A stretch of DNA of 47,473 nucleotides, taken from the IMG/VR virus record IMGVR_UViG_2585427964_000002. One strand, given 5' to 3'. Each line of letters starts with the position of its first letter. The first letter of the stretch is position 1. The notes beneath the pieces were generated by a model. The model ran no database searches and was not told the DNA's origin. It worked only from the letters and a program-made list of their open reading frames with translations. Both the position numbers and the translations under genes were made by a program. The DNA comes from a virus. Taxonomy: Duplodnaviria; Heunggongvirae; Uroviricota; Caudoviricetes. This document shows, piece after piece, positions 1,641 through 20,594 of the stretch.

Positions 1641-4079
1641 TTAAGAATCAGCCTGACTCGGGATCAGTTTTTGCCAGATAACTGAAACGTATTTTGCCTG
1701 GTAACGGGCGTCATCAAGTGCATTATGGCGCTCACCTTCGAATGGAATAGCCGTTCTGGCATCGAAGTCTATGGCTTTCCCCAGCTCAACGATTGTGCGT
1801 ACATCGCGATCGTTGTAGTAACGCCACGGGCAGGGGATCCCCTGCCGTTCGTATGAACGGCGCAAAATCGTGTTGTCGAAGTTGGCTCCATTTCCCCAGA
1901 CCTGAACAAAAAATTCACCGGAGTTTTCGTCGATAAATTCCCGCAATTGTAACAGTGCATCATCTAACGGGATTTCATCGGTCATAATGGCAGATTGCGC
2001 TTCGCGTGATTGCTTAAGCCACCATTTAATGGTGTCCCGATCAATGACTCCGCCAGCAGTTTCCAGATCGATAGTCTTACTAAATTCCGGTCCCATATCT
2101 CCGGTTTGCGGATCGAAAAATATTGCACCTATTGAGATGATCGGGGCATCAGGATTTTTTCCCATGGTTTCAAGGTCGATCATTAGATGGTCACACGTCC
2201 TGCTGGTGGATGTGATTTCGTGATGACCGTTCACATTAATTAAGGGATCTGTCGCCTCGCCAGTTTCATTATCGCTATCGTGATGCTGATTGCCGCCAGG
2301 GTTCTCCTTGTGTGGATGTTCAGCGCCTTCCATTTCCTCCGGATCATTTTCCTGAACTTCAACCTGATTCTCTTCATTGAATGTTTCCTGGTATGTTGCG
2401 TCGCCCATCACCACACCACAATCAGGGCAGTTGCCGCCGCCGGTCTGACCGCAGGCGGTACAGACTTTTTCCGGTTCTTGTTGCTCTTCTGGTTCAGGCT
2501 GTTTCGTTTTTGGCTCGTTTTGTAACGCATTTGAGCTGTTTTGTTCCGCTTTCTGGTCGTTCCGTTCCGATTCTTGCTGGTTCTGGTTCACAGAATCGCG
2601 GGTTTCAATCCCCTTCACCCATTTCGGATCATTCGGGTCGCTAATCCCTGCAACAAATTCACCACGTGATGCAGCAAGCAACTTATCGGCGTCAGGCTGG
2701 TTGATATTGGCTGCCTGCATAATTTTGTTTACTTCGTCAGCGGTGACTTTTACTTGGTTAGCGGAACTCACCTGCGACTGAGCATCCAGCGACTGCGCGT
2801 CCTGGCTATGTTCAGTTGTATCCGGTTCCATTGTTTCAGTTGTTGTCCGTTCACCTGCCATTGCGTCAGATGGTTGTGGTTTTTCTTCTGTTTCACGCTC
2901 AGTAACCACCTCGCGGTTAATTTCTTCCAGGATATCTTTTTCCGGCGTATGCCGGGCAACTGTGAGAGTTTCCTTGCTGGGGTTCTCGTGATCAGTTTCC
3001 GTCAAATAGGCGTTGATATACCCCTGAAGGCGTCCCGGGTAGTGATAAAATTCAGGGTGTGCGTTTCGGATAAGTGCAAAAATAGCGGCGCGGGAATAGT
3101 CCAGAATACCCGGGGTTGCACGAAGTGCTGCGGACCATTCTTTGAACGGACTTTCTTTTTTCAGGACGACTTCTTTTGCGCGACGATAAACGCTGCCCGG
3201 AATTTCATAAATATTAAAATCCATCGGAAGTGTGGCTGCTGCAATCTCCACATCCAGTGTGTCGAGGGTGTGTACTAAATTCGGATTGCGATCGGTTTTG
3301 TTCCCGCCACCGGCATTAGCACCGGAAGCCGTGCGGGTGATACGCGAAACACGATTTCCTTTCATCCACTCTTTTGTTAGCAGACCGCGATCGGTGTAGT
3401 CTGCGTCTAGGTATGCTTCGAAAAAAGCAGTCATCGGCCCCAGGCTTGAATTGCCAGGATTAGGGAAAACTTTGTCAGTATCACGCACCAGTTTGTGGAG
3501 GTCGCGAATCTCCAGCGGGTCGAGCAGGCTGGTTTTGTGGGAAACAGCCAGGGCAGTAACAGCCGGTAGTTCTTCAGCCCGTGCAATGTGTAATGCCTGG
3601 AGTTCGTCGCGTGAAACGTGCGTTACCGGTTTTTTGCTGCCGTGTTGAGCAAGCCAACGAATGGGCAGTTCCTGACCGGAAACAGGCAGAAGCATGCTCT
3701 CCTCAATCTCAGTCATGTCTTCGCCGTTGATGTTGGTATTGTCAGTGCTGGCTGGTTTGTCCTGAACTGAGGGGGAAGGGCCGATAAATGTCATTGTGAT
3801 GCCATCTTTCCCGCCTTTTTCATAGCGGTTGCAGAATTCCGTATCAAACACGCCTTCTGGCGGAAGGTCGTCAACAACGGGCAAATTGACGCGGACGGGT
3901 TTTTTAAAGTCGTCTTCATCATAATCGTTGTCATCCATTGCGGTAATGCAGCGGGAGATTGCAACAGATAATTTTTTTGCTGTAGTCCAGTAAAAACCAC
4001 CTTTAATTCCCAGGCGTTTTCTTACTTTGTCATTTTTTGCTTCGCAATATAGTGCAAATTCTTCTTTATCAGTGCTCAT
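1641..4079 (-). CDS. Exonuclease-family protein: C-terminal DEDDh 3'-5' exonuclease domain, central double-CxxC motif, acidic linker
   Basis: 812-aa ORF. C-terminal motifs [16 protein letters not shown] and HNALDDARY fit Exo I/II/III of DEDDh exonucleases. [16 protein letters not shown] is a zinc-ribbon-like motif. Long D/E/Q-rich low-complexity linker. The N-terminal half resembles RecE-type (exodeoxyribonuclease VIII-like) prophage proteins from memory, not verified. Confidence 0.75.
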
Positions 4080-4169
4080 TGATAAACCTCATTACAGATT
4101 TAAGGGTGAACAAATCTCTGCCATTGCTGACATATAAGAATGAAACTGGATATTTATTACGGTGCTGTT

Positions 4170-4775: not shown

Positions 4776-5025
4776 GAGTGTTGTGGCAGGGTTGTCACTT
4801 AAGCGTATGGTCAACCTGACAACCCGGTGTCCTCAACGGGGAAGGAATAACCCCGCCATACTTACCGCCGCGCCATTTCGCGGAGTGCCACAACCGGAAG
4901 CGCACGGTCGACGAAAATTTAACGACAGGCTATCTATGAACCAGCTACCTCGCCGTGCGCTTTCGCGTTATGTGCCTGCTTTTAACCACGTCAGGCGAGG
5001 TGGTATCCTTAAAATCACCACAGTT

Positions 5026-5601
5026 TTAAGGATTCATTAAGCAATGTCGCAACCACCAATAAATCCGCTTAAGAACATGAAAATTGATTACTGGTATAAA
5101 GCGCTTACAGTTGTTGGCGCTGCGTTGTTTGTCTTTAATGGAACGTCTTTTTTTGACAGATATCCCGTTGTTCCATTGGGTTTTTTGTCCTCCGGCATCT
5201 TTTTTATTGGTTTGGGGGAGTGGATTAATCACCCTCTCAAAGTGAGATTTATTGGTCCTGGAGTTTGGACTCGTGGATATAATCGTTCTTCGTGCGCACT
5301 CGGTATCATCTTCGACATACTTGGTTGTTTCCTGATTGTTACAGGAGTCGTCAAGTTCTTCTGATGTAAAACCGCAAATGGGGCACGTAACGGGAATTTT
5401 GAAAAGCGTTTCACCGGGTTCCAGAACAAAATTTTCTGCGGTCTGATTTTGCTTCTCATATTTGTGCTCCGCGTCATTGTGAGAGCACATTCTTATTCTG
5501 AGTGCCTGTTTAAACTCACTGAAGCTGAGAGCTTCTTCGCCTTCGGCAAGGCCTTCGAAGTATTCTTCGTAAGCCTTTTTCATGATTGTGTCGAAATCCA
5601 T
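5026..5601 (-). CDS. YdfB/YdfC-like protein (possibly an unsplit ancestral form; 3' extent uncertain)
   Basis: ORF beginning MDFDTIMKKAYEEYFEGLAEGEE... immediately downstream of ydfA in the dicB operon; contains a CPICG motif. The C-terminal 80 or so residues are K/R/N-rich low complexity and may be non-coding read-through. Competes with a plus-strand membrane-like ORF at 5044-5364. Confidence 0.35.
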   Translation of the reverse strand: MDFDTIMKKAYEEYFEGLAEGEEALSFSEFKQALRIRMCSHNDAEHKYEKQNQTAENFVLEPGETLFKIPVTCPICGFTSEELDDSCNNQETTKYVEDDTECARRTIISTSPNSRTNKSHFERVINPLPQTNKKDAGGQKTQWNNGISVKKRRSIKDKQRSANNCKRFIPVINFHVLKRIYWWLRHCLMNP

Positions 5602-5602
5602 A

Positions 5603-5758
5603 TCACTCACCTGAGTTTCTTTCCAGCCAGCGACGGGCACCATTTTCGGTTTTAAACGTTTTGCTTTTGGTATATGTCATCGCGGTGAACGTGCCGTCCT
5701 GGTTGGGAAACACGCCGTACACCAGATATTCGTTGTTGCCAAGATCGATAGTATCCAT
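5603..5758 (-). CDS. ydfA: YdfA-like protein (DUF1391-type)
   Basis: 51-codon ORF from an internal Met (MDTIDLGNNEYLVYGVFPNQDGTFTAMTYTKSKTFKTENGARRWLERNSGE), first gene after dicA in the dicB operon. Matches recalled YdfA. Confidence 0.7.
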   Translation of the reverse strand: MDTIDLGNNEYLVYGVFPNQDGTFTAMTYTKSKTFKTENGARRWLERNSGE

Positions 5759-6663: not shown

Positions 6664-7168
6664 ACAGGCTCGTGAGGCTCTGGATGCCTGGATATGTCGA
6701 CCAGGAATGACACAGGAGCAGGCGACGATATTAATCACTGAAGCATTCTGGGCTTTGAAAGAGCGCCCGAACATCGATGTTCAGCGTGTCACAGATGAAG
6801 GTGGCGCGGTTGATCAGCGAGCGCTTGGCGTTAATCGAGTGAAGATATTCGAACGCTGGAAGGCTATCGACACCAGGGATAAGCGTGAAAAGTTCACGGC
6901 GCTAGTGCCTGCAATTATGGAGGCTATCCGGATTAATGATTTCAGGTTGTATCGTGAAATTAGTGACGGAAAAAGCATCACGTACATGATCGCCGGGTTA
7001 AACAAAGAATATGGCGATGTGGTGGAGTCCGGACTGCTTTTTGCTGATCCTGCCGTAGTGGATCGTGAAACTGACGAACTTATAGAAAAAGCAATTGCTT
7101 TCAAACTTGCGTATCGACAGCAATACCAACAAAAAGCTGGATGGAATTATGAGCCTTCTTTTTGCTGA
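6647..7168 (+). CDS. cII-position hypothetical protein (full-length YdfX-like)
   Basis: 173-aa ORF overlapping the dicC stop, in the early-right operon. Family assignment from memory only. Confidence 0.5.
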   Translation: MKITPEQAREALDAWICRPGMTQEQATILITEAFWALKERPNIDVQRVTDEGGAVDQRALGVNRVKIFERWKAIDTRDKREKFTALVPAIMEAIRINDFRLYREISDGKSITYMIAGLNKEYGDVVESGLLFADPAVVDRETDELIEKAIAFKLAYRQQYQQKAGWNYEPSFC

Positions 7169-8114
7169 ACGCCCACTGGTTATAAACACACAGCTTGCGA
7201 TGAAGATTGGCTTAAATGAAGCCATTGTGTTGCAGCAGTTGCATTACTGGTTGAGAGATACCAATTCCGGCATGGAATGTGATGGTGTTCGCTGGATTTA
7301 CAACACAACGGAACAATGGCTGGAACAGTTCCCATTCTGGTCAGAGTCAACGTTAAAGCGCGCGTTTGCAAGTCTGAAAACGCTGGGGCTTTTGCGTTGT
7401 GAAAAGCTCAATAAATCAAAGCGCGATATGACCAATTTCTACACAATCAACTACGGGAGTGAGCTTTTAGATGATGGCAAATTGAGCGAATCCATCGGTT
7501 CAAAATGCGCCGCTCCATCAGGTCAAAATGACACGATGGAAGAGGTCAAAATGAAACGCTCCATTGGTTCAAAACGACCCAATGTCATCGGGTCAAAATG
7601 GCCTGATGATCTTACAGAGAATACAACAGAGATTACTACAGAGAATAAAAACACTTTTCGTCCGGAAGCTTCGCAACCGGACCCGCAGACGACTGAACAG
7701 GATTTTTTAACCCGGAACTCCGACGCGGTTGTGTTTAGTGCGAAAAAACGCCAGTGGGGTAGCAGGGAGGATTTGGCGTGTGCGCAGTGGATCTGGGGGC
7801 GGATCGTGGGTCTCTACGAACAGGCAGCCAGTGATGATGGCGAGATCATGCGACCAAAAGAGCCTAACTGGACTGCCTGGGCCAATGACGTGCGCACAAT
7901 GCGGATGCTGGATGGCAGAAGCCACAGACAAATTTGCGAAATGTTTGGTCGGGTACAGCGAGATCCATTCTGGGTAAAAAACATCATGAGCCCGTCAAAA
8001 CTTCGTGAAAAATGGGATGAACTGGTCATCCGTCTGGGGCGTTCGTCTGTACAGCGTTGTGTGAATCATATTTCTGAACCGGATACAGAAATTCCGCCTG
8101 GTTTCAGGGGATAA
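7149..8114 (+). CDS. Phage replication initiation protein (O-like replisome organiser)
   Basis: ATG at 7149 (the track start at 7095 is TTG). Located where lambdoid phages encode O. N-terminal winged-helix-like region; no DnaC/P-like loader gene follows. Confidence 0.55.
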   Translation: MSLLFAERPLVINTQLAMKIGLNEAIVLQQLHYWLRDTNSGMECDGVRWIYNTTEQWLEQFPFWSESTLKRAFASLKTLGLLRCEKLNKSKRDMTNFYTINYGSELLDDGKLSESIGSKCAAPSGQNDTMEEVKMKRSIGSKRPNVIGSKWPDDLTENTTEITTENKNTFRPEASQPDPQTTEQDFLTRNSDAVVFSAKKRQWGSREDLACAQWIWGRIVGLYEQAASDDGEIMRPKEPNWTAWANDVRTMRMLDGRSHRQICEMFGRVQRDPFWVKNIMSPSKLREKWDELVIRLGRSSVQRCVNHISEPDTEIPPGFRG

Positions 8115-8154
8115 GTGTTGATTTCAGGTCATGAGGTAATTTTAAGGGGGACTT

Positions 8155-8577
8155 GTGGCAAAAGTTTTTACACAAGAAGAGCGGGAAAAAATTAAAGGGC
8201 AGGTGGTGGAACTCGTGCGCCAGAGCGGTCGTGAGACGCTACGGCAACTGGAAGCTAAAACAGGTGCGACAAGATATCTGATGAGCGTTCTTGCCAGAGA
8301 GCTGGTTGCCAGTGGCGATGTATACAACTCCGGCTACGGGTTATTCCCCTCTGAACAGGCGCGTAAGGACTGGCAAAACGCCCGCAAAAAACTCTCGAGG
8401 GCAAAGGTGAAGAAACCTGCTGTGGTTGATCCGGACCTTATCTGGTCATTACCTGACGGAGAAATACGTCGCTACGACAGGCGTATGAACATAATCTGTC
8501 GCGAGTGCCGGAAGAGCGAAGTTATGCAGCGGATTTTGGCATTTTATAAGGGAAATATTCGAACATTACCACGGTGA
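8155..8577 (+). CDS. Hypothetical phage protein
   Basis: 140-aa ORF with ordinary GC and codon appearance, last gene before the AT-rich island. Confidence 0.5.
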   Translation: MAKVFTQEEREKIKGQVVELVRQSGRETLRQLEAKTGATRYLMSVLARELVASGDVYNSGYGLFPSEQARKDWQNARKKLSRAKVKKPAVVDPDLIWSLPDGEIRRYDRRMNIICRECRKSEVMQRILAFYKGNIRTLPR

Positions 8578-8921
8578 ACGAAATTAAAGAGCATTACTTC
8601 AGATATGAATTGACATTTTGATGGCACATGGCTAGAACTGGTCTGGTTGTCAGCTTTGTATCAAAAACAGACATTTTGAGTTTCAATATTTGCTAATGAA
8701 TTAAGACTGATTCTTATCTATATCAATTCATACGAAATACTATGCAATACATCATTGAATTTTACTAGATAAGCGCTATTTGGGTAAATGGAGGTCGCAG
8801 AAGACATGCCGCTATTCGTTGGTTTTTATAGACTATATCACTTTCCTCTGCGGTCTCTATTTACCTAACAGCTTGGATTTCTTTGCATGCAAGTCTGTAA
8901 TATCGAGTGTAATCAAACGGA

Positions 8922-9953
8922 ATGTATATTACTTCCAAACTGCGGCGTATCGCGTTACGCTACTCAAGATTATTCCAACATGAGTCCTCCTATATGGCAC
9001 GAAAATTAATAATATTCGGCAACGGTCTTGGTATGGCTTTAGATCCTGCTCATTTTTCCTTAGACAGGGCGTTGGCAGAAATTTGGCATCGATCCAATTT
9101 CTTAAACGATGTCCATAAGCAACTTATCGAACGTTGTCTTCAGCGGCAAGGTCCACCGGCAGGGGAACATGAGTTGGATACCCTTCACCAAGCTATCACA
9201 TATTGTAAGGCTCTTGCGCAAATTGGAGAAGGAAACGAGCATTGGCTTACTGACGATGGACTAAACTTCCCCGAAATCACCGCCACTTATATCCACAAAG
9301 TTGCAACTAGTTTGCATAATTACGGTGAAGGGTTGCCGCAAAGATTCGAAAATGCGCTAGTGGAATTTGTAAAAAATACACGCACTCATATTGCGACATT
9401 AAACTATGACAAATTATTATACAACTCATTCATAGATAATGATATATTCAGCGGGTATGATGGGTATCTGGTTGATGGGATGTTAGGCCACGGATTTTCC
9501 GCCGAAGCGCTCGAACGGAAATATAATCGTAGGTTTGGTTATTATTTGCATTTGCATGGCTCACCACTATTTGTTAATCAGGGTGAGACCGTCTTAAAAC
9601 TTTCACGTTCTCAACTTACGGTTGACAGGGATGAGCCTAGCGAACATATAGTGTTAACGCATATAAAAAGGAAACCGTCAGTTATAGCAGCATCTAATGT
9701 TCTTTCTACGTACTGGGATTATTTGCAGTTTGCATTATTTGAATCAGAAGAAATAATACTGTTTGGTTATTCTGGCCTCGATGAACACCTTAACCTGCTT
9801 ATTCGGCCTTACCTAACCTCTAAGCATTTAAGAGTAATTGAGTGGAGCGGTGCAGGTGAACAAAATGACCGTGAGGCATACTGGCAATATTTGTTAGGAC
9901 GGGAAGTTACTGTAACCAGGTTGGATAACATCACTGACTTCATCAATTGGTAG
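8922..9953 (+). CDS. SIR2-like (SIR2_2/DHS-like NAD-binding fold) protein, candidate NADase defence effector
   Basis: Ordered motifs of the defence-associated SIR2 family: Rossmann strand plus glycine loop KLIIFGNGLGMAL, catalytic-Asn motif ATLNYDKLLY, catalytic-His motif YLHLHGSPLF, and ILFGYSGLDEH. Alternative start at ATG 8994; neither start has a strong Shine-Dalgarno. Visibly AT-rich relative to flanking phage genes. Confidence 0.6.
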   Translation: MYITSKLRRIALRYSRLFQHESSYMARKLIIFGNGLGMALDPAHFSLDRALAEIWHRSNFLNDVHKQLIERCLQRQGPPAGEHELDTLHQAITYCKALAQIGEGNEHWLTDDGLNFPEITATYIHKVATSLHNYGEGLPQRFENALVEFVKNTRTHIATLNYDKLLYNSFIDNDIFSGYDGYLVDGMLGHGFSAEALERKYNRRFGYYLHLHGSPLFVNQGETVLKLSRSQLTVDRDEPSEHIVLTHIKRKPSVIAASNVLSTYWDYLQFALFESEEIILFGYSGLDEHLNLLIRPYLTSKHLRVIEWSGAGEQNDREAYWQYLLGREVTVTRLDNITDFINW

Positions 9954-12445: not shown

Positions 12446-12820
12446 ATGCTCATAGATTTGGTTTTACCTTACCCGCCGACGGTGAACACTTACTGGCGAC
12501 GCCGTGGCAGCACATATTTTATCTCGGAGGAGGGAAAGCGTTATCGCCGGGCTGTGGCGCTTATTGTTCGCCAGCAGCGGCTGAAATTAAGCCTGTCCGG
12601 AAGGCTGGCGATAAAGGTGATTGCAGAGCCACCGGATAAGCGTCGTCGCGACCTGGACAATATCCTGAAAGCACCGCTGGATGCGCTGACGCATGCGGGA
12701 GTGTTAATGGACGATGAGCAGTTTGATGAAATCAATATCGTTCGTGGTCAGCCAGTATCTGGTGGACGTATGGGGGTGAAGATTTACCCCATAATGCATG
12801 AAGAGCAGGTCAAAAAATGA
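12446..12820 (+). CDS. rusA: Holliday junction resolvase RusA
   Basis: 124 aa with the RusA signature region ...DKRRRDLDNILKAPLDALT... and typical size and position upstream of Q. Confidence 0.85.
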   Translation: MLIDLVLPYPPTVNTYWRRRGSTYFISEEGKRYRRAVALIVRQQRLKLSLSGRLAIKVIAEPPDKRRRDLDNILKAPLDALTHAGVLMDDEQFDEINIVRGQPVSGGRMGVKIYPIMHEEQVKK

Positions 12821-13638
12821 AACTGGAAGATTTACCGAAATACTACTCCCCAAAATCCCCTTGCCTGACCGATGCATCGGCTTCAACGTCAAAAGATGCG
12901 CTGAGTATCACTGATGTGATGGCCGCGCAGGGCATGACACAGAATCGGGCTGAGATGGGGTTTTCTGCGTTCCTGGGGAAAATGGGCATCAGTATGAATG
13001 ACAGGGCACGGGCAACAGAATTACTGGCAGATTATGCACTCAGTCGGTGCGATCGTGTGGCGGCGTTGAGAAAACTTCCGGCAGAAATAAAACCGGTAGT
13101 GATGCGCATTATGGCTTCGTACGCTTTTGAGGATTATGCCCGCAGCGCAGCGAGTAAAAAGCAGTGCCCTTGTTGCTATGGGGAAAAATTTATTGAAAGC
13201 GTAGTTTTTACAAACAAGGTCCAGTATCCGGATGGTAAGCCGCCGGTATGGGCAAAGTGTACGAAAGGTGTGTATCCGTCTTACTGGGAAGAATGGAAAA
13301 AAGTCAGGGAGGTGGTAAAAGTTGCCTGTCCGGAGTGTGGCGGAAAGGGTGAGGTTTCCACCGCCTGTAAGGATTGCCGTGGGCGTGGTGTCGCCATTCA
13401 CCGTGAAGAGTCGGTAAAACGTGGTATGCCTGTTATCAGAGACTGCCAGCGTTGTGGTGGTCGTGGCTATGAAAGACTACCATCAACGGAGGCATTTAAT
13501 GCTATATGCGAGGTGACAAACCAGATAACACGCGCGTCATGGGAAAAAACAGTTAAGAAATTCTATGATGCGCTGGTGACCCGGTTTGATATTGAAGAAG
13601 CATGGGCTGAGCGGCAGTTAAAAAAGGTAACTAGGTAA
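12817..13638 (+). CDS. Q: Late-gene antitermination protein Q
   Basis: 273-aa ORF overlapping the rusA stop, with several CxxC zinc-binding pairs, at the position preceding the late promoter, tRNAs and lysis genes. Confidence 0.75.
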   Translation: MKLEDLPKYYSPKSPCLTDASASTSKDALSITDVMAAQGMTQNRAEMGFSAFLGKMGISMNDRARATELLADYALSRCDRVAALRKLPAEIKPVVMRIMASYAFEDYARSAASKKQCPCCYGEKFIESVVFTNKVQYPDGKPPVWAKCTKGVYPSYWEEWKKVREVVKVACPECGGKGEVSTACKDCRGRGVAIHREESVKRGMPVIRDCQRCGGRGYERLPSTEAFNAICEVTNQITRASWEKTVKKFYDALVTRFDIEEAWAERQLKKVTR

Positions 13639-13720
13639 CAAGGTTGATTTTTCCGGAATCTGTGGTAAATTCATCATAATGATGGGCTTTTTATGCCTGA
13701 CGTTAGAAGAGTTTCTACAA

Positions 13721-13743
13721 CCCGCCGCCGAGCGGGTTTTTTA
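13721..13743 (+). terminator. Intrinsic terminator (tR'-like) downstream of Q
   Basis: CCCGCCGCCGAGCGGG hairpin plus TTTTTTATT. A putative late promoter (TTGATT ... CATAAT) lies in 13645-13680. Confidence 0.55.
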
Positions 13744-13781: not shown

Positions 13782-13857
13782 GGCCCTTTAGCTCAGTGGT
13801 GAGAGCGAGCGACTCATAATCGCCAGGTCGCTGGTTCAAATCCAGCAAGGGCCACCA
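13782..13857 (+). tRNA. tRNA with CAU anticodon (Ile2/Met type, ileX/ileZ-like)
   Basis: 76-nt cloverleaf GGCCCTTTAGCTCAGTGGTGAGAGCGAGCGACTCATAATCGCCAGGTCGCTGGTTCAAATCCAGCAAGGGCCACCA; anticodon loop CTCATAA; encoded CCA end. Confidence 0.85.
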
Positions 13858-13957: not shown

Positions 13958-14034
13958 GCGTTGTTAGCTCAGCCGGACAGAGCAATTGCCTTCTAAGCAA
14001 TCGGTCACTGGTTCGAATCCAGTACAGCGCGCCA
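13958..14034 (+). tRNA. tRNA-Arg (UCU anticodon)
   Basis: 77-nt cloverleaf GCGTTGTTAGCTCAGCCGGACAGAGCAATTGCCTTCTAAGCAATCGGTCACTGGTTCGAATCCAGTACAGCGCGCCA; anticodon TCT; T-arm GGTTCGAATCC. Confidence 0.85.
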
Positions 14035-14498: not shown

Positions 14499-15031
14499 AT
14501 ACATATCTGGATTATCACCTGTTACGGTAAAAAGTGATTGCTTACTGTTTTTGTGAATGGCATTGCAGCAGCCGGATAATGTCAGTGCTGGCTGACGGTG
14601 TGCTGGTGGCGGGTGTGGTGGTTGTTGCTTTCCCGTTGCTGAAAAAGAAAACGCCAGACTGTTAGCCGGGTATCAGTTAGCGGGAGAAATTTTTAAATAC
14701 TTCACAATTCAGGCGGTTGACTGTTCTCTGGTTTGCGGGGAGTTTGTTAAAAGAAACTGGCATGGTGAATCCCCCTGTGCGGAGGGGCAATCAGCGAGTA
14801 GGTATATGGGATAATCGCGGATTCAGGTGCTGGTACTGAATTCACCGGGAGGCACCCGGCACCATGCACTTCAATAGATTCTCTCCACATTATGGATATT
14901 CTTTCAGAATATCCCACGCAGACTTTGTGTAAATGTTAACAAATGTGCGTTTTATTTGATCTGATTCGCTGTTTGAGCGTCCAAAACAACGGTATATATA
15001 ATCCTTTACTATATGACATATGTGAGGAAAA

Positions 15032-15460
15032 ATGGGTTTTCGTAGCGCATCAATTCTTACGTTGATTATTAGTGGGATTATTATCGGGTGCAGTGATGCT
15101 GTATCGACAAATTATCATGACCGTACATCATATTACTCCGATAAAGCAATAGAGACACAGTATGTGAGTTCATCTGAACGTACTTCTGATGTTAGTGAGG
15201 ATATCCGTCTGTATGCCCATCAAATCAAGAGCGCCATCGAAAAACAGTTCGGGGATGCGAGTAAGTATTCAGGAAAAGAGTGTACACTGAGAATGCATAT
15301 GGCCCCGAATGGCCTTCTACTGGAGGTTAAAAGAGAAAGTGGAGACCTCGATTTATGTCGTGAAGCGATGAATGCGATAAAGAATGCTGATATACCTGCC
15401 CCCCCTTCGCCGGAAGTATATAAAGTATTTCAAAATGGGGTGCTGGATTTTAAACCCTGA
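15032..15460 (+). CDS. Outer-membrane lipoprotein with TolA C-terminal (domain III)-like domain
   Basis: Signal peptide plus lipobox IIGC|S. C-terminal ...KQFGDASKYSGKECTLRMHMAPNGLLLEVKRESGDLDLCREAMNAIKNADIPAPPSPEVYKVFQNGVLDFKP closely mirrors the recalled TolA C-terminus (...AVYEVFKNAPLDFKP). Confidence 0.7.
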   Translation: MGFRSASILTLIISGIIIGCSDAVSTNYHDRTSYYSDKAIETQYVSSSERTSDVSEDIRLYAHQIKSAIEKQFGDASKYSGKECTLRMHMAPNGLLLEVKRESGDLDLCREAMNAIKNADIPAPPSPEVYKVFQNGVLDFKP

Positions 15461-15610
15461 TATTTATTGTTTTGTAATAAACGGTTTCGGCTTAGGTTTG
15501 TTCTGACACAACTACGGCACTGAGCTAAATTTAGCGGATAGTCAGCTCTGAGCCAGTGGCGGACGTAACAACTACTATTGCTGAGATTTTAATGGATTGA
15601 GGAGCAAGAA

Positions 15611-16006
15611 GTGGGATTAAAGAAAATCGTTATGTTGACTTTTTGGGTCGGTTTTGTTGCGGGATGCACACCTTTACACCCTTCAGATTGCCACAAAACT
15701 ACTGCTACAGGTAGTTGCAGTTCAGGACGCTGGGATGATCAGGATGAATGGGGGGCGCAAGCGCGGGGAATCAGAGCTGCAATTAATGCCAAACTTGATG
15801 AGCCGCATAACTGGAAAGGGAAAAAATGCAGGTTGCATATGGAATTCTCTCAGGATGGCACGGCGTTAAAAATATCTACCAGTAACGGTGATAAAGCCTA
15901 TTGCGAAGCGATAAAGTCCGCAGCTCATAAAGCCAAATTTCCGGCCTTCAACAATCCGGAAGTCTACAGAGATTTTCAGAAATCTGGCTTTGACATGCGA
16001 GGTTAG
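15611..16006 (+). CDS. Outer-membrane lipoprotein with TolA C-terminal-like domain (paralog of 15032-15460)
   Basis: GAGGAG Shine-Dalgarno before a GTG start. Lipobox VAGC|T. C-terminal ...KGKKCRLHMEFSQDGTALKISTSNGDKAYCEAIKSAAHKAKFPAFNNPEVYRDFQ aligns by eye with the first lipoprotein and TolA domain III. Confidence 0.7.
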   Translation: MGLKKIVMLTFWVGFVAGCTPLHPSDCHKTTATGSCSSGRWDDQDEWGAQARGIRAAINAKLDEPHNWKGKKCRLHMEFSQDGTALKISTSNGDKAYCEAIKSAAHKAKFPAFNNPEVYRDFQKSGFDMRG

Positions 16007-16131: not shown

Positions 16132-16154
16132 AGCTCGCTACGGCGAGCTTTTTA
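16132..16154 (+). terminator. Intrinsic terminator after the second TolA-like lipoprotein gene
   Basis: AGCTCGC-tacg-GCGAGCT hairpin followed by TTTTT. Confidence 0.5.
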
Positions 16155-16257: not shown

Positions 16258-16473
16258 ATGAAATCCATGGACAAAATTTCAACAGGCATTGCCTACGGCA
16301 CCTCCGCAGGCAGTGCTGGCTACTGGTTTTTACAGCTGCTCGATAAAGTCACGCCCTCACAGTGGGCAGCAATAGGTGTGCTGGGTAGCCTGGTATTTGG
16401 CCTGCTGACGTACCTGACAAATCTTTATTTCAAGATTAAAGAAGACAGGCGTAAGGCTGCGAGAGGAGAGTAA
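16258..16473 (+). CDS. S: Pinholin, phage 21 S-type class II holin with dual start
   Basis: GGAGGTGA Shine-Dalgarno before [31 protein letters not shown]...[19 protein letters not shown], matching recalled S21 pinholin with its MKSM dual-start motif. Confidence 0.8.
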
Positions 16474-16477
16474 TCCA

Positions 16478-16785
16478 ATGACTCAAGACTATGAACTGGT
16501 TGTGAAAGGAGTCCGTAATTTTGAGAATAAAGTTACGGTAACTGTAGCCTTACAGGACAAAGAACGCTTTGACGGTGAAATTTTTGGCCTGGATGTCGCC
16601 ATGGACCGTGTTGAAGGAGCTGCGCTGGAGTTTTATGAGGCAGCAGCCAGAATGAGCGTCCGGCAAGTCTTCCTGGAAGTAGCAGAAAAATTGTCAGAAA
16701 AAGTTGAGTCTTATCTGCAGCATCAGTACTCCTTTAAGATTGAAAATCCTGCCAATAAGCACGAGCGTCCTCATCATAAATATCT

Positions 16786-16789
<4 letters not shown>
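16478..16789 (+). CDS. YdfR-like (DUF1327-type) protein between holin and endolysin
   Basis: 103-aa ORF, same length and position as recalled K-12 ydfR. Confidence 0.55.
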
Positions 16790-17813
<1,024 letters not shown>

Positions 17814-18175
17814 ATTAATATTAAATCGGATTATTTTTAGCGCTGAATGTGAAATTTAAATAAAAAGGACTCTTCCATGAGTCAAAATCCTTGAAATCTT
17901 AAGGGTAAGATAAAAGGTCATTAGACAGAATGACACGTTTTATTAATAAATAAAGCTATTGTTTCATTCGTGTGTTTTTCTTTACAAAAGTAATCCTTGC
18001 TATGGTTGGTTAATCATGCGTTAATGGTGTTCTGGTTTGTTACAAAATTATCTGAAGCAGTCATTGTTATAATTTTATTATTTGTACCTCTTGAGATTTC
18101 CTTGTTGGTTTTTCTCTCTGATATTTTTTTCGGACCATTCTGCCCAAGGGCTAACTTCTTCAAAAGGTAATAATG

Positions 18176-18388
18176 ATGTCTAACAAAATGACTGGTTTAG
18201 TGAAATGGTTTAACCCTGAAAAAGGTTTTGGTTTCATCACGCCGAAAGATGGTAGCAAAGATGTGTTTGTGCATTTCTCAGCTATTCAGAGCAACGATTT
18301 CAAAACGTTAACTGAGAATCAGGAAGTCGAATTTGGTATTGAGAACGGACCTAAAGGCCCTGCAGCTGTTCATGTAGTGGCACTTTGA
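18176..18388 (+). CDS. cspI: Cold-shock protein, CspA family
   Basis: [23 protein letters not shown]...[12 protein letters not shown]1/RNP2 cold-shock-domain motifs. Long AT-rich 5' UTR upstream. Symbol assigned by position (Rz-csp-ynfN-gnsB), moderate certainty. Confidence 0.8.
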
Positions 18389-18593
18389 GGTAGAAAATAT
18401 TACAAACCATATTCACTTTAGATGCCCGTGTTGCCATGGTTCTCAGTATAGAACATCATCTTTTGATGTTTCTGACAGAAATCCTTTCGGGGCAAAATGT
18501 ATCTTTTGTAAATCAATGATGATTACATTTGATAATATTTCACAATACTTAAATGTTAGCCATCTGTCGTTAGATTTAAGAAAGTGAAAATGA

Positions 18594-20271: not shown

Positions 20272-20594
20272 TTTTTTGCCCGTCCATATTCAACGGCTTC
20301 TTTGAGGAGTTCATTTTCCATCGTTTTCTTGCCGAGCAGGCGCTGGAGTTCTTTAATCTGCTTCATGGCGGCAGCAAGTTCAGAGGCAGGAACAACCTGT
20401 TCTCCGGCGGCGACAGCAGTAAGACTTCCTTCCTGGTATTGCTTACGCCAGAGAAATAACTGGCTGGCTGCTACACCATGTTGCCGGGCAACGAGGGAGA
20501 CCGTCATCCCCGGTTCAAAGCTCTGCTGAACAATTGCGATCTTTTCCTGTGTGGTACGCCGTCTGCGTTTCTCCGGCCCTAAGACATCAATCAT
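20229..20594 (-). CDS. insC: IS2 OrfA (InsC), HTH protein
   Basis: 121-codon ORF starting [33 protein letters not shown]...; ATG at IS2 position 92 from the left end. Confidence 0.9.

Follow-up and report, generated by a model that had tools for sequence, protein, structure and literature searches.

The biochemistry of the C-terminal domain III of TolA (TolAIII), which belongs to the Tol–Pal system of Escherichia coli, is well mapped (PMC7391070, PMC4339652, PMC3365938). The N terminus of TolB, the N1 domain of the filamentous-phage protein g3p (g3p-N1) and colicin N (ColN) each add a strand to strand β3 of TolAIII at residues L417–K420, g3p-N1 additionally touching the first helix, and the substitutions D418P or K420P abolish the binding of g3p-N1, ColN and TolB and result in a tol phenotype (PMC4339652). 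Colicin A adds its strand to β2 (residues 375–380, LLDIKP) and uses K368, K379 and K396 (PMC3365938). The affinities of TolAIII for its known ligands are only micromolar (PMC4339652). Here we describe two adjacent open reading frames, ORF1 and ORF2, that encode short predicted lipoproteins ending in a TolAIII domain, and that lie in the IMG/VR virus record IMGVR_UViG_2585427964_000002 (Caudoviricetes). The whole stretch analysed (47,473 nucleotides, hereafter the window) comprises nearly all of a lambdoid prophage at a Qin-type insertion site adjoining rspB. We hypothesize that such periplasmic mimics compete with TolA for its ligands, so that the cell tolerates Tol-dependent colicins and withstands filamentous phages, a proposal that we regard as evenly poised between right and wrong but as likelier than any of its rivals.

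The two proteins can be set beside several described systems. With TolAIII of the E. coli Tol–Pal system (PDB 1TOL, 2X9A, 3QDP/3QDR, 1S62) they share the fold, in which a sheet of three strands packs against helices, and the disulfide pair, and ORF1 also shares β3; unlike E. coli TolA, they have a lipoprotein signal and a short tether, are carried by a prophage outside the tol-pal operon and have no coupling to the proton-motive force. Laboratory export of TolAIII to the periplasm has been exploited to free proteins from that compartment (PMC6195910, which cites Levengood-Freyermuth 1993 and Wan & Baneyx 1998). Such constructs likewise place free TolAIII in the periplasm alongside normal TolA, but they are soluble, overproduced and artificial, whereas ORF1 and ORF2 are natural, predicted to be lipid-anchored, diverged and under selection. 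In the 1993 work of Levengood-Freyermuth, periplasmic TolAIII reportedly also gave tolerance to group A colicins. Llp of phage T5 and Cor of phi80, N15 and the mEp phages are, similarly, small phage lipoproteins on the periplasmic side of the outer membrane; they keep competitors from entering and share a moron-like logic with the present pair, but bind and plug the receptor FhuA, whereas ORF1 and ORF2 would imitate a periplasmic docking domain of the host. Filamentous-phage g3p made in the host occupies TolA, leading to superinfection immunity and colicin tolerance. The same TolAIII–ligand interaction would be hit by ORF1 and ORF2 and the predicted phenotype is the same, the difference being that host-expressed g3p saturates the TolA of the host, whereas ORF1 and ORF2 would saturate the TolA-binding epitope of the invader. 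Finally, a gene pair on Klebsiella cloacin plasmids (see below) has the same design of a signal peptide and the C-terminal domain of an energizer alone, but belongs to another lineage, has a TonB-like partner instead of a second TolA-like protein and stands in the context of a bacteriocin plasmid.

ORF1 (positions 15032–15460, plus strand) starts with ATG, is preceded by the Shine–Dalgarno sequence GAGGA (15024–15028) and encodes a lipoprotein of 142 amino acids (aa); ORF2 (15611–16006, plus strand) starts with GTG, 6 nucleotides (nt) after the Shine–Dalgarno sequence GAGGAG (15599–15604, plus strand), and encodes a lipoprotein of 131 aa. An earlier annotation made from the sequence alone (the first-pass annotation) had placed both genes at these positions, quoted their lipoboxes and C termini exactly and noted the lack of Asp at +2, and the TolA C terminus that it quoted for comparison, AVYEVFKNAPLDFKP, is correct. 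Its identification of TolA domain III is borne out by a profile search against Pfam PF06519 (TolA_C), in which ORF1 scores 82.6 bits (E 2.4e-23) and ORF2 54.6 bits (E 1.3e-14), both beyond the gathering threshold of 25 bits. The superposition on TolAIII that it had suggested gave the same answer with AlphaFold2 models, which were made from family alignments, are predicted and not solved structures, and are confident over the C-terminal ~90 residues (pLDDT > 90 over the domain in each protein). In Foldseek searches the top PDB match of the ORF1 model was E. coli TolAIII (2x9a_B; TMt 0.96, root-mean-square deviation (rmsd) 0.6 Å) and that of the ORF2 model 3qdp (TMt 0.92, rmsd 1.0 Å). The entry 2X9A is the complex of If1 g3p with TolAIII. 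The domain copy in ORF1 (aa 51–142, positions 15182–15457, plus strand) is 59% identical to E. coli TolA 334–421 over 88 residues without a gap, and retains both TolAIII disulfide cysteines, C363 and C388, which are invariant in the alignment of the ORF1 and ORF2 families. That in ORF2 is a diverged TolAIII-like fold (aa 48–131, positions 15752–16003, in the split used for the substitution analysis below; the model is confident from about aa 41) and is ~31–34% identical to E. coli TolAIII. By sequence and by predicted fold, the C-terminal domains of ORF1 and ORF2 are TolA domain III. The domain identification itself is not new, and the genes are less obscure than the first-pass annotation implied: across hundreds of genomes, RefSeq describes their products by the TolA C-terminal domain.

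The remainder of TolA is not found in either protein. In place of the membrane anchor (domain I) there is a cleavable lipoprotein signal with a lipobox, and in place of the Ala/Lys/Glu-rich helical domain II a disordered tether of ~20–30 residues precedes the domain (aa 21–50 in ORF1, disordered also in the model). The TIGR02794/PRK09510 profile (387 positions) is covered only at positions 293–386 by ORF1 and 304–382 by ORF2, and the PRK09510 scores (107.9 and 53.7 bits, respectively) fall below the cut-off of 213 bits. Without the TolQR-coupling anchor and domain II, neither protein is a TolA. RefSeq still gives ORF1 that name (‘cell envelope integrity protein TolA’) and, elsewhere, DNA identical to ORF1 has been flagged by PGAP as an N-terminally incomplete tolA pseudogene (for example in strain 1EC213). 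Positions with annotation problems are 15611–15631 in the window, 8733 in locus L002 and 20301–20561 in locus L132. In PHROG, the significant match was to phrog_5772 (function unknown), ORF2 also matching phrog_5374 (function unknown) weakly.

Signal peptides and lipoboxes occupy positions 15032–15091 in ORF1 (IIG-C20) and 15611–15667 in ORF2 (VAG-C19), both on the plus strand. The N termini read MGFRSASILTLIISGIIIG-C20-SD, with Ser at +2, and MGLKKIVMLTFWVGFVAG-C19-TP, with Thr at +2, each having a basic n-region and a hydrophobic h-region. Both (I-I-G-C20-S and V-A-G-C19-T) conform to the lipobox rule [LVI][ASTVI][GAS]C with no Asp at +2, where Asp indicates inner-membrane retention, and sorting of both lipoproteins to the outer membrane is predicted on the basis of that rule. 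RefSeq starts ORF2 at an ATG 21 nt downstream, which leaves a signal of 11 residues with zero basic residues. This start is probably wrong; the GTG is favoured because the Shine–Dalgarno sequence GAGGAG is well spaced, KKIVML is conserved upstream in homologues and the signal starting at the ATG is too short.

Could the two genes nevertheless be non-functional remnants of a captured tolA, hitch-hiking in the prophage? The PGAP call in strain 1EC213 would fit such a view, as would the existence of frameshifted database variants. These (for example P0010, 158 aa) are shifted at a C7 homopolymer in ORF1 (15399–15405, plus strand), which lies just 5′ of the codons for the last helix and β3, so that helix 3 and β3 are lost and the protein ends in the product of an overlapping reading frame (15384–15506) instead of the ligand-binding C terminus. 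Of 81 related loci examined, however, 80 have the C7 tract and a single one has C8, and phase variation at this site is thus an unsupported idea. Each gene has its own start, ribosome-binding site and complete lipoprotein signal peptide, absent in tolA, and dozens of 50%-identity clusters share the design. The ratio of non-synonymous to synonymous substitution rates (dN/dS) is well below 1: against a 65%-identical variant it is 0.24 for the ORF1 domain and 0.68 for the linker, and for ORF2 it is 0.08–0.11 (~0.1) against plasmid and chromosomal homologues. Judged from these substitution ratios both genes are under purifying selection and not debris, and the chance that they are remnants is close to negligible.

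How far the ligand-binding surface has been kept differs between the two proteins. Strand β3 of ORF1, LDFKP, is identical to that of TolA, with no proline at the equivalents of positions 418 and 420; the ORF2 equivalent, FDMRG, is a conservative change, also free of proline, and retains the edge strand in part. PMC4339652 mutated 20 positions in the two g3p-N1-binding regions, and ORF1 agrees with TolA at 14 of them. At the colicin A site ORF1 reads LLEVKR, with K379 and K396 retained and K368 replaced by His (4/8 identical), whereas ORF2 has ALKIST (2/8 identical).

This divergence of ORF2 raises the possibility that one of the proteins, ORF2 especially, has a ligand other than the known partners of TolA, a different β-strand epitope that would give it some other role in exclusion or in housekeeping; candidates may be a motif resembling a TonB box in some outer-membrane protein, or part of the machinery for conjugation or phage entry. 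ORF2 is only about a third identical to TolAIII, with residues changed on both binding strands, and its family is conserved at 78–89% across genera, being chromosomal in many. The mature N-terminal 28 residues of ORF2 (aa 20–47, positions 15668–15751, plus strand; TPLHPSDCHKTTATGSCSSGRWDDQDEWG) include two extra cysteines and are mostly modelled with low confidence, yet are constrained at least as strongly as the folded domain (ω ~0–0.09, with synonymous sites near saturation), a combination typical of a linear binding motif. This suggests that the segment is a binding motif or a disulfide-stapled loop. On IncI plasmids the ORF2-type gene follows the relaxase gene, and ORF1 scores barely over the cut-off of Pfam TonB_2. 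Against such a ligand, ORF2 itself has no Pfam TonB match, and Foldseek places it far closer to TolAIII (TMt 0.92) than to TonB C-terminal domains (~0.4–0.5). No candidate partner was identified, and a resemblance of the ORF2 segment GSCSSGRWDDQDEWG to the TolB box of colicins (published core DG[S/T]GWSSE; ColE9 32-GASDGSGWSSENNPW-46; PMC2821528) was rejected, just one Gly and one Trp aligning, the essential Asp being absent and the Trp–Trp spacing being off by one. On balance we consider a ligand outside the TolA repertoire quite unlikely.

The first-pass annotation took ORF1 and ORF2 for tandem paralogues whose divergence suggested diversification, and this has had to be abandoned. The two are 28% identical to one another (E 5e-18) as against 59% between ORF1 and TolA; because ORF1 is nearer to TolA than to ORF2, and each lineage is found alone elsewhere, they did not arise by local duplication. 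Rather, these comparisons indicate that the tandem pair is two lineages joined in a single cargo slot of a prophage. Of 5,426 complete E. coli genomes, 773 carry both genes at full length. Lone ORF1-type genes, 65–73% identical to ORF1, occupy the same interval between the antiterminator gene Q and the lysis genes in other E. coli prophages, and share the slot there with unrelated cargo (genes for an AraC-type regulator, for TfpB and for a DUF1737-SASA esterase). The ORF2 family comprises 368 clusters, 78–89% identical across Citrobacter, Enterobacter, Klebsiella, Raoultella, Leclercia and Serratia, and its genes occur singly, across Enterobacterales, in non-phage chromosomal contexts, which vary from one genus to another. 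One such context (loci L120–L123, ~7001–9736) has the ORF2-family gene adjoining GmrSD-like (PF03235) and HEPN genes downstream of nrdDG, and looks like a small defence islet. IncI1/B/O/K/Z plasmids and pO157 also have an ORF2-type copy, 87–88% identical, behind the relaxase gene nikB, lying 68 nt 3′ of nikB in the former (L003/L004, ~4995–5426) and after a nikB remnant in pO157 Sakai (L141, 4953–5384). Homology between the plasmid and phage copies begins just 30 nt before the start codon, and the mobile unit is therefore essentially a ribosome-binding site and a coding sequence. ORF2 is probably the older, diverged lineage, with a ligand range that is probably different.

Beyond these two lineages, an exhaustive phmmer search with ORF1 over 1.84 billion cluster representatives returned 332 relatives, and about 60 of the best 150 are small proteins (110–170 aa) in which a short variable segment joins a signal peptide to TolAIII. 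A lipobox is present in 41 of the 60 short relatives fetched, none with Asp at +2, and several of the others have ordinary Sec signals. Those that are named come from Serratia, Kosakonia and other Enterobacteriaceae, and all have been automatically annotated as TolA or ‘colicin import membrane protein’. Dozens of clusters at 50% identity have this TolAIII-only design, and by tblastn a TolAIII-only gene is found in 1,337 PLSDB plasmids. One lineage resides on elements of 105–120 kb beside genes for CobT, DNA ligase, PhoH and gp49_66, which suggests that these elements are SSU5/pHCM2-like phage-plasmids. On IncR Klebsiella plasmids (NZ_CP079123.1; L142, 4173–5202) a TolA_C-only lipoprotein gene stands behind a gene for a thioredoxin-fold (DsbA/TraF-like) protein, which may be relevant to formation of the TolAIII disulfide. 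Of particular interest are the 10-kb Klebsiella plasmids of the cloacin type (E3-like bacteriocin), in which a gene for a TolA_C-only lipoprotein, 39% identical to ORF1, is followed with a 4-nt overlap by one for a secreted TonB_C-only protein; in NZ_CP043360.1 (L140) the pair (4944–5677) is divergent from the bacteriocin–immunity–lysis operon (1912–4098). The presence of these plasmid genes has been noted without interpretation (PMC10269471), the sole mention that we found in the literature. Natural TolAIII-only lipoproteins as a broad class on mobile elements, the distinctness of the ORF1 and ORF2 lineages and the TonB counterpart on bacteriocin plasmids appear to be new.

Most of the stand-alone lineages are 43–61% identical to E. 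coli TolAIII but 35–50% to one another, and most keep an L-[DE]-F-x-x C terminus, the ORF2 family being the outlier. That lineages should be nearer to TolAIII than to each other is expected under mimicry, because a mimic must keep resembling TolA. The broad proposal of a TolAIII-based competitor in the periplasm, put forward in the first-pass annotation, gains from the retention of LDFKP in ORF1 and from the relatives on mobile elements, the cloacin plasmid among them. Under our hypothesis, both lipoproteins would be tethered by a flexible linker to the inner face of the outer membrane, and a free-standing TolAIII without a TolQR-coupled anchor or domain II would bind ligands while transmitting no force, a competitor by its very design. 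The ligands would be TolB through its N-terminal strand, group A colicins through their TolA-binding epitopes and g3p through its N1 domain, all docking by β-strand addition, and the mimic would catch incoming epitopes as they emerge from the outer membrane, ahead of energized TolA. A lysogen would in this way tolerate Tol-dependent colicins and resist filamentous phages, with ORF1 as the close mimic of E. coli TolA. For both proteins we infer the localization, the ligand binding, the expression in the lysogen and the protective phenotype. Recurrence of the design as cargo on unrelated elements without a lysis function favours protection. The purifying selection on both genes and the effects of laboratory TolAIII in the periplasm also count for the hypothesis. 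The pili of IncI plasmids are the receptors of phage If1. Such plasmids would plausibly benefit from protection against it.

A role tied to lysis is a rival to protection. The first-pass annotation placed the genes directly upstream of the lysis genes, as indeed they are: the holin gene begins at 16258 and is followed by genes for lysozyme and Rz. The two proteins could, then, be dominant-negative inhibitors of Tol–Pal produced from the Q-dependent late transcript, titrating TolB, stopping Pal mobilization and loosening the outer membrane, with faster final lysis or greater release of vesicles or virions as the result. That periplasmic TolAIII makes E. coli leak periplasmic content (PMC6195910), and that β3 mutants of TolA deficient in TolB binding show a tol phenotype (PMC4339652), would agree with this, and the homologue on cloacin plasmids adjoins an operon that ends in a release (lysis) gene. 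The late-operon position that prompted the suggestion of a lysis-tied role stands, but the suggestion itself is weakened by the ORF2 family, whose genes stand singly in non-phage chromosomal contexts and on IncI plasmids, where no gene for lysis or release was among their neighbours. Moreover, the slot of the ORF1 variants is shared with unrelated cargo such as the AraC-type regulator and the esterase, the phage already has Rz/Rz1 to deal with the outer membrane, and a terminator separates ORF1–ORF2 from the holin gene. Nor would the outer membrane be loosened by the TonB_C-only partner that cloacin plasmids encode, and the pairing of TolA_C with TonB_C on a bacteriocin plasmid fits a blockade of both import routes better than membrane loosening. 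We consider a function in release unlikely.

The terminator just mentioned is a strong intrinsic one (16132–16149 with a T-run to 16158, plus strand; AGCTCGC-TACG-GCGAGCT), with a stem of 7 base pairs, five of them GC, and a predicted fold of −16.4 kcal/mol (z = −3.2). On the other side of the pair, 30 nt before the ORF1 start codon, is a sigma-70 promoter-like site (14973–15002, plus strand; TTGAGC-18 nt-TATAAT) that matches at 10 of 12 positions and is the best of its region, although the promoter scan as a whole was not enriched (11 sites versus 7.5 ± 2.6 in shuffled sequences). As a promoter of ORF1 this site is suggestive only. Flanked by the promoter-like site and the terminator, ORF1–ORF2 would form a unit like a moron, and such bracketing, as read from the sequence, would favour protection. 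By analogy with lambda, a Q-modified late transcript would be expected to read through the terminator at 16132.

Several points weigh against protection by mimicry. Identity to TolA is not significantly enriched at ligand-contact positions in either protein or on either face (p = 0.31, 0.71), and ORF2, diverged at both binding strands (FDMRG and ALKIST), may leave the ligands of TolA unbound. Since the affinities of TolAIII are micromolar, a decoy must be abundant, and titration of TolB should cost the cell outer-membrane integrity. Location in the late operon could mean that expression occurs mainly during lytic growth. The promoter-like site is weak evidence and is not conserved upstream of the 65%-identical ORF1 variant, where the upstream regions are unrelated and the comparison is uninformative. 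No defence model of PADLOC matches ORF1 or ORF2, neither is homologous to the Cor or Llp families, and our full-text search of the literature, incomplete in its coverage so that such a study may exist, turned up none on the function of TolAIII-only proteins from phages or plasmids. Quite apart from the readings named here, we would leave a slim chance for functions that fall outside all of them.

It is tempting to speculate on a wider principle. Mobile elements of Enterobacterales, from lambdoid prophages and phage-plasmids to IncI, IncR and Col plasmids, may repeatedly deploy periplasmic, often lipid-anchored, copies of the docking domains at the C termini of TolA and TonB as a general ‘import firewall’, in which the Tol- or Ton-binding epitopes of colicins and filamentous phages would be captured short of the energized machines, and in which the pair in the window would add a second, older specificity to a close mimic of E. 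coli TolA; we offer this tentatively, as somewhat less than evenly balanced. In the literature searched we found no description of such a natural, widespread defence by mimicry of a host receptor domain.

The region around the two genes is 99.9% identical to Escherichia phage mEp460_ev081, which was the sole match when ORF1 was compared by tblastn with a phage-genome collection; a scan of viral contigs gave near-identical copies only, with no diversity. The antiterminator gene Q (12817–13638) is followed by a terminator-like hairpin (13719–13738) and, downstream of that, by two tRNA genes (13782–13857 and 13958–14034). One has a CAT anticodon, called Met by ARAGORN and Ile by RefSeq, and the other is a tRNA-Arg(TCT), making a rare-codon pair typical of late regions of the Stx type. 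Small reading frames lie between the tRNA genes and ORF1, and a homologue of the small RNA (sRNA) STnc100 (14731–14921, plus strand) gives a full-length match to RF02076 (114 bits, E 3e-25). It ends ~110 nt upstream of ORF1, and RefSeq has a minus-strand pseudogene fragment at the same positions, 14731–14921. In Stx2 phages the STnc100 sRNA is located 75 nt downstream of stx2B (PMC12370729), and the TolA-like pair is therefore in the same late-operon cargo region as the Shiga toxin genes. The interval between Q and the holin gene S is a general cargo slot. Downstream of the pair are the holin gene (16258–16473), a DUF1327/YdfR gene (16478–16789), the lysozyme gene (16786–17319) and Rz (17316–17813), which contains an embedded Rz1-like reading frame. 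The ‘S-R-Rz’ of the first-pass annotation is thus right as to holin, lysozyme and Rz, but a YdfR-type gene stands between holin and endolysin and the cassette is S-YdfR-R-Rz. Directly downstream of Rz, as in Qin-type prophages, come a cspA-type thermoregulator 5′ untranslated region (18019–18434, plus strand; RF01766, 111 bits) and a cold-shock protein gene (18173–18388).

Whatever the function, the analysis exposes a systematic error of annotation, in which short lipoproteins are called ‘cell envelope integrity protein TolA’ or tolA pseudogenes. If the decoy reading is true, about one in seven complete E. coli genomes would carry an unrecognized tolerance factor, and many IncI, pO157-type and Klebsiella bacteriocin plasmids would likewise carry a factor for tolerance to group A colicins and filamentous phages. 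Competition between strains in the gut would then be affected, and there would be a bearing on colicin-based antimicrobials, on phage display and on phage therapy with Ff-type vectors. Natural, selected variants of TolAIII would become available for mapping the ligand specificity of Tol–Pal, and periplasmic mimicry of a docking domain would be a new mechanism among the exclusion systems of phages and plasmids.

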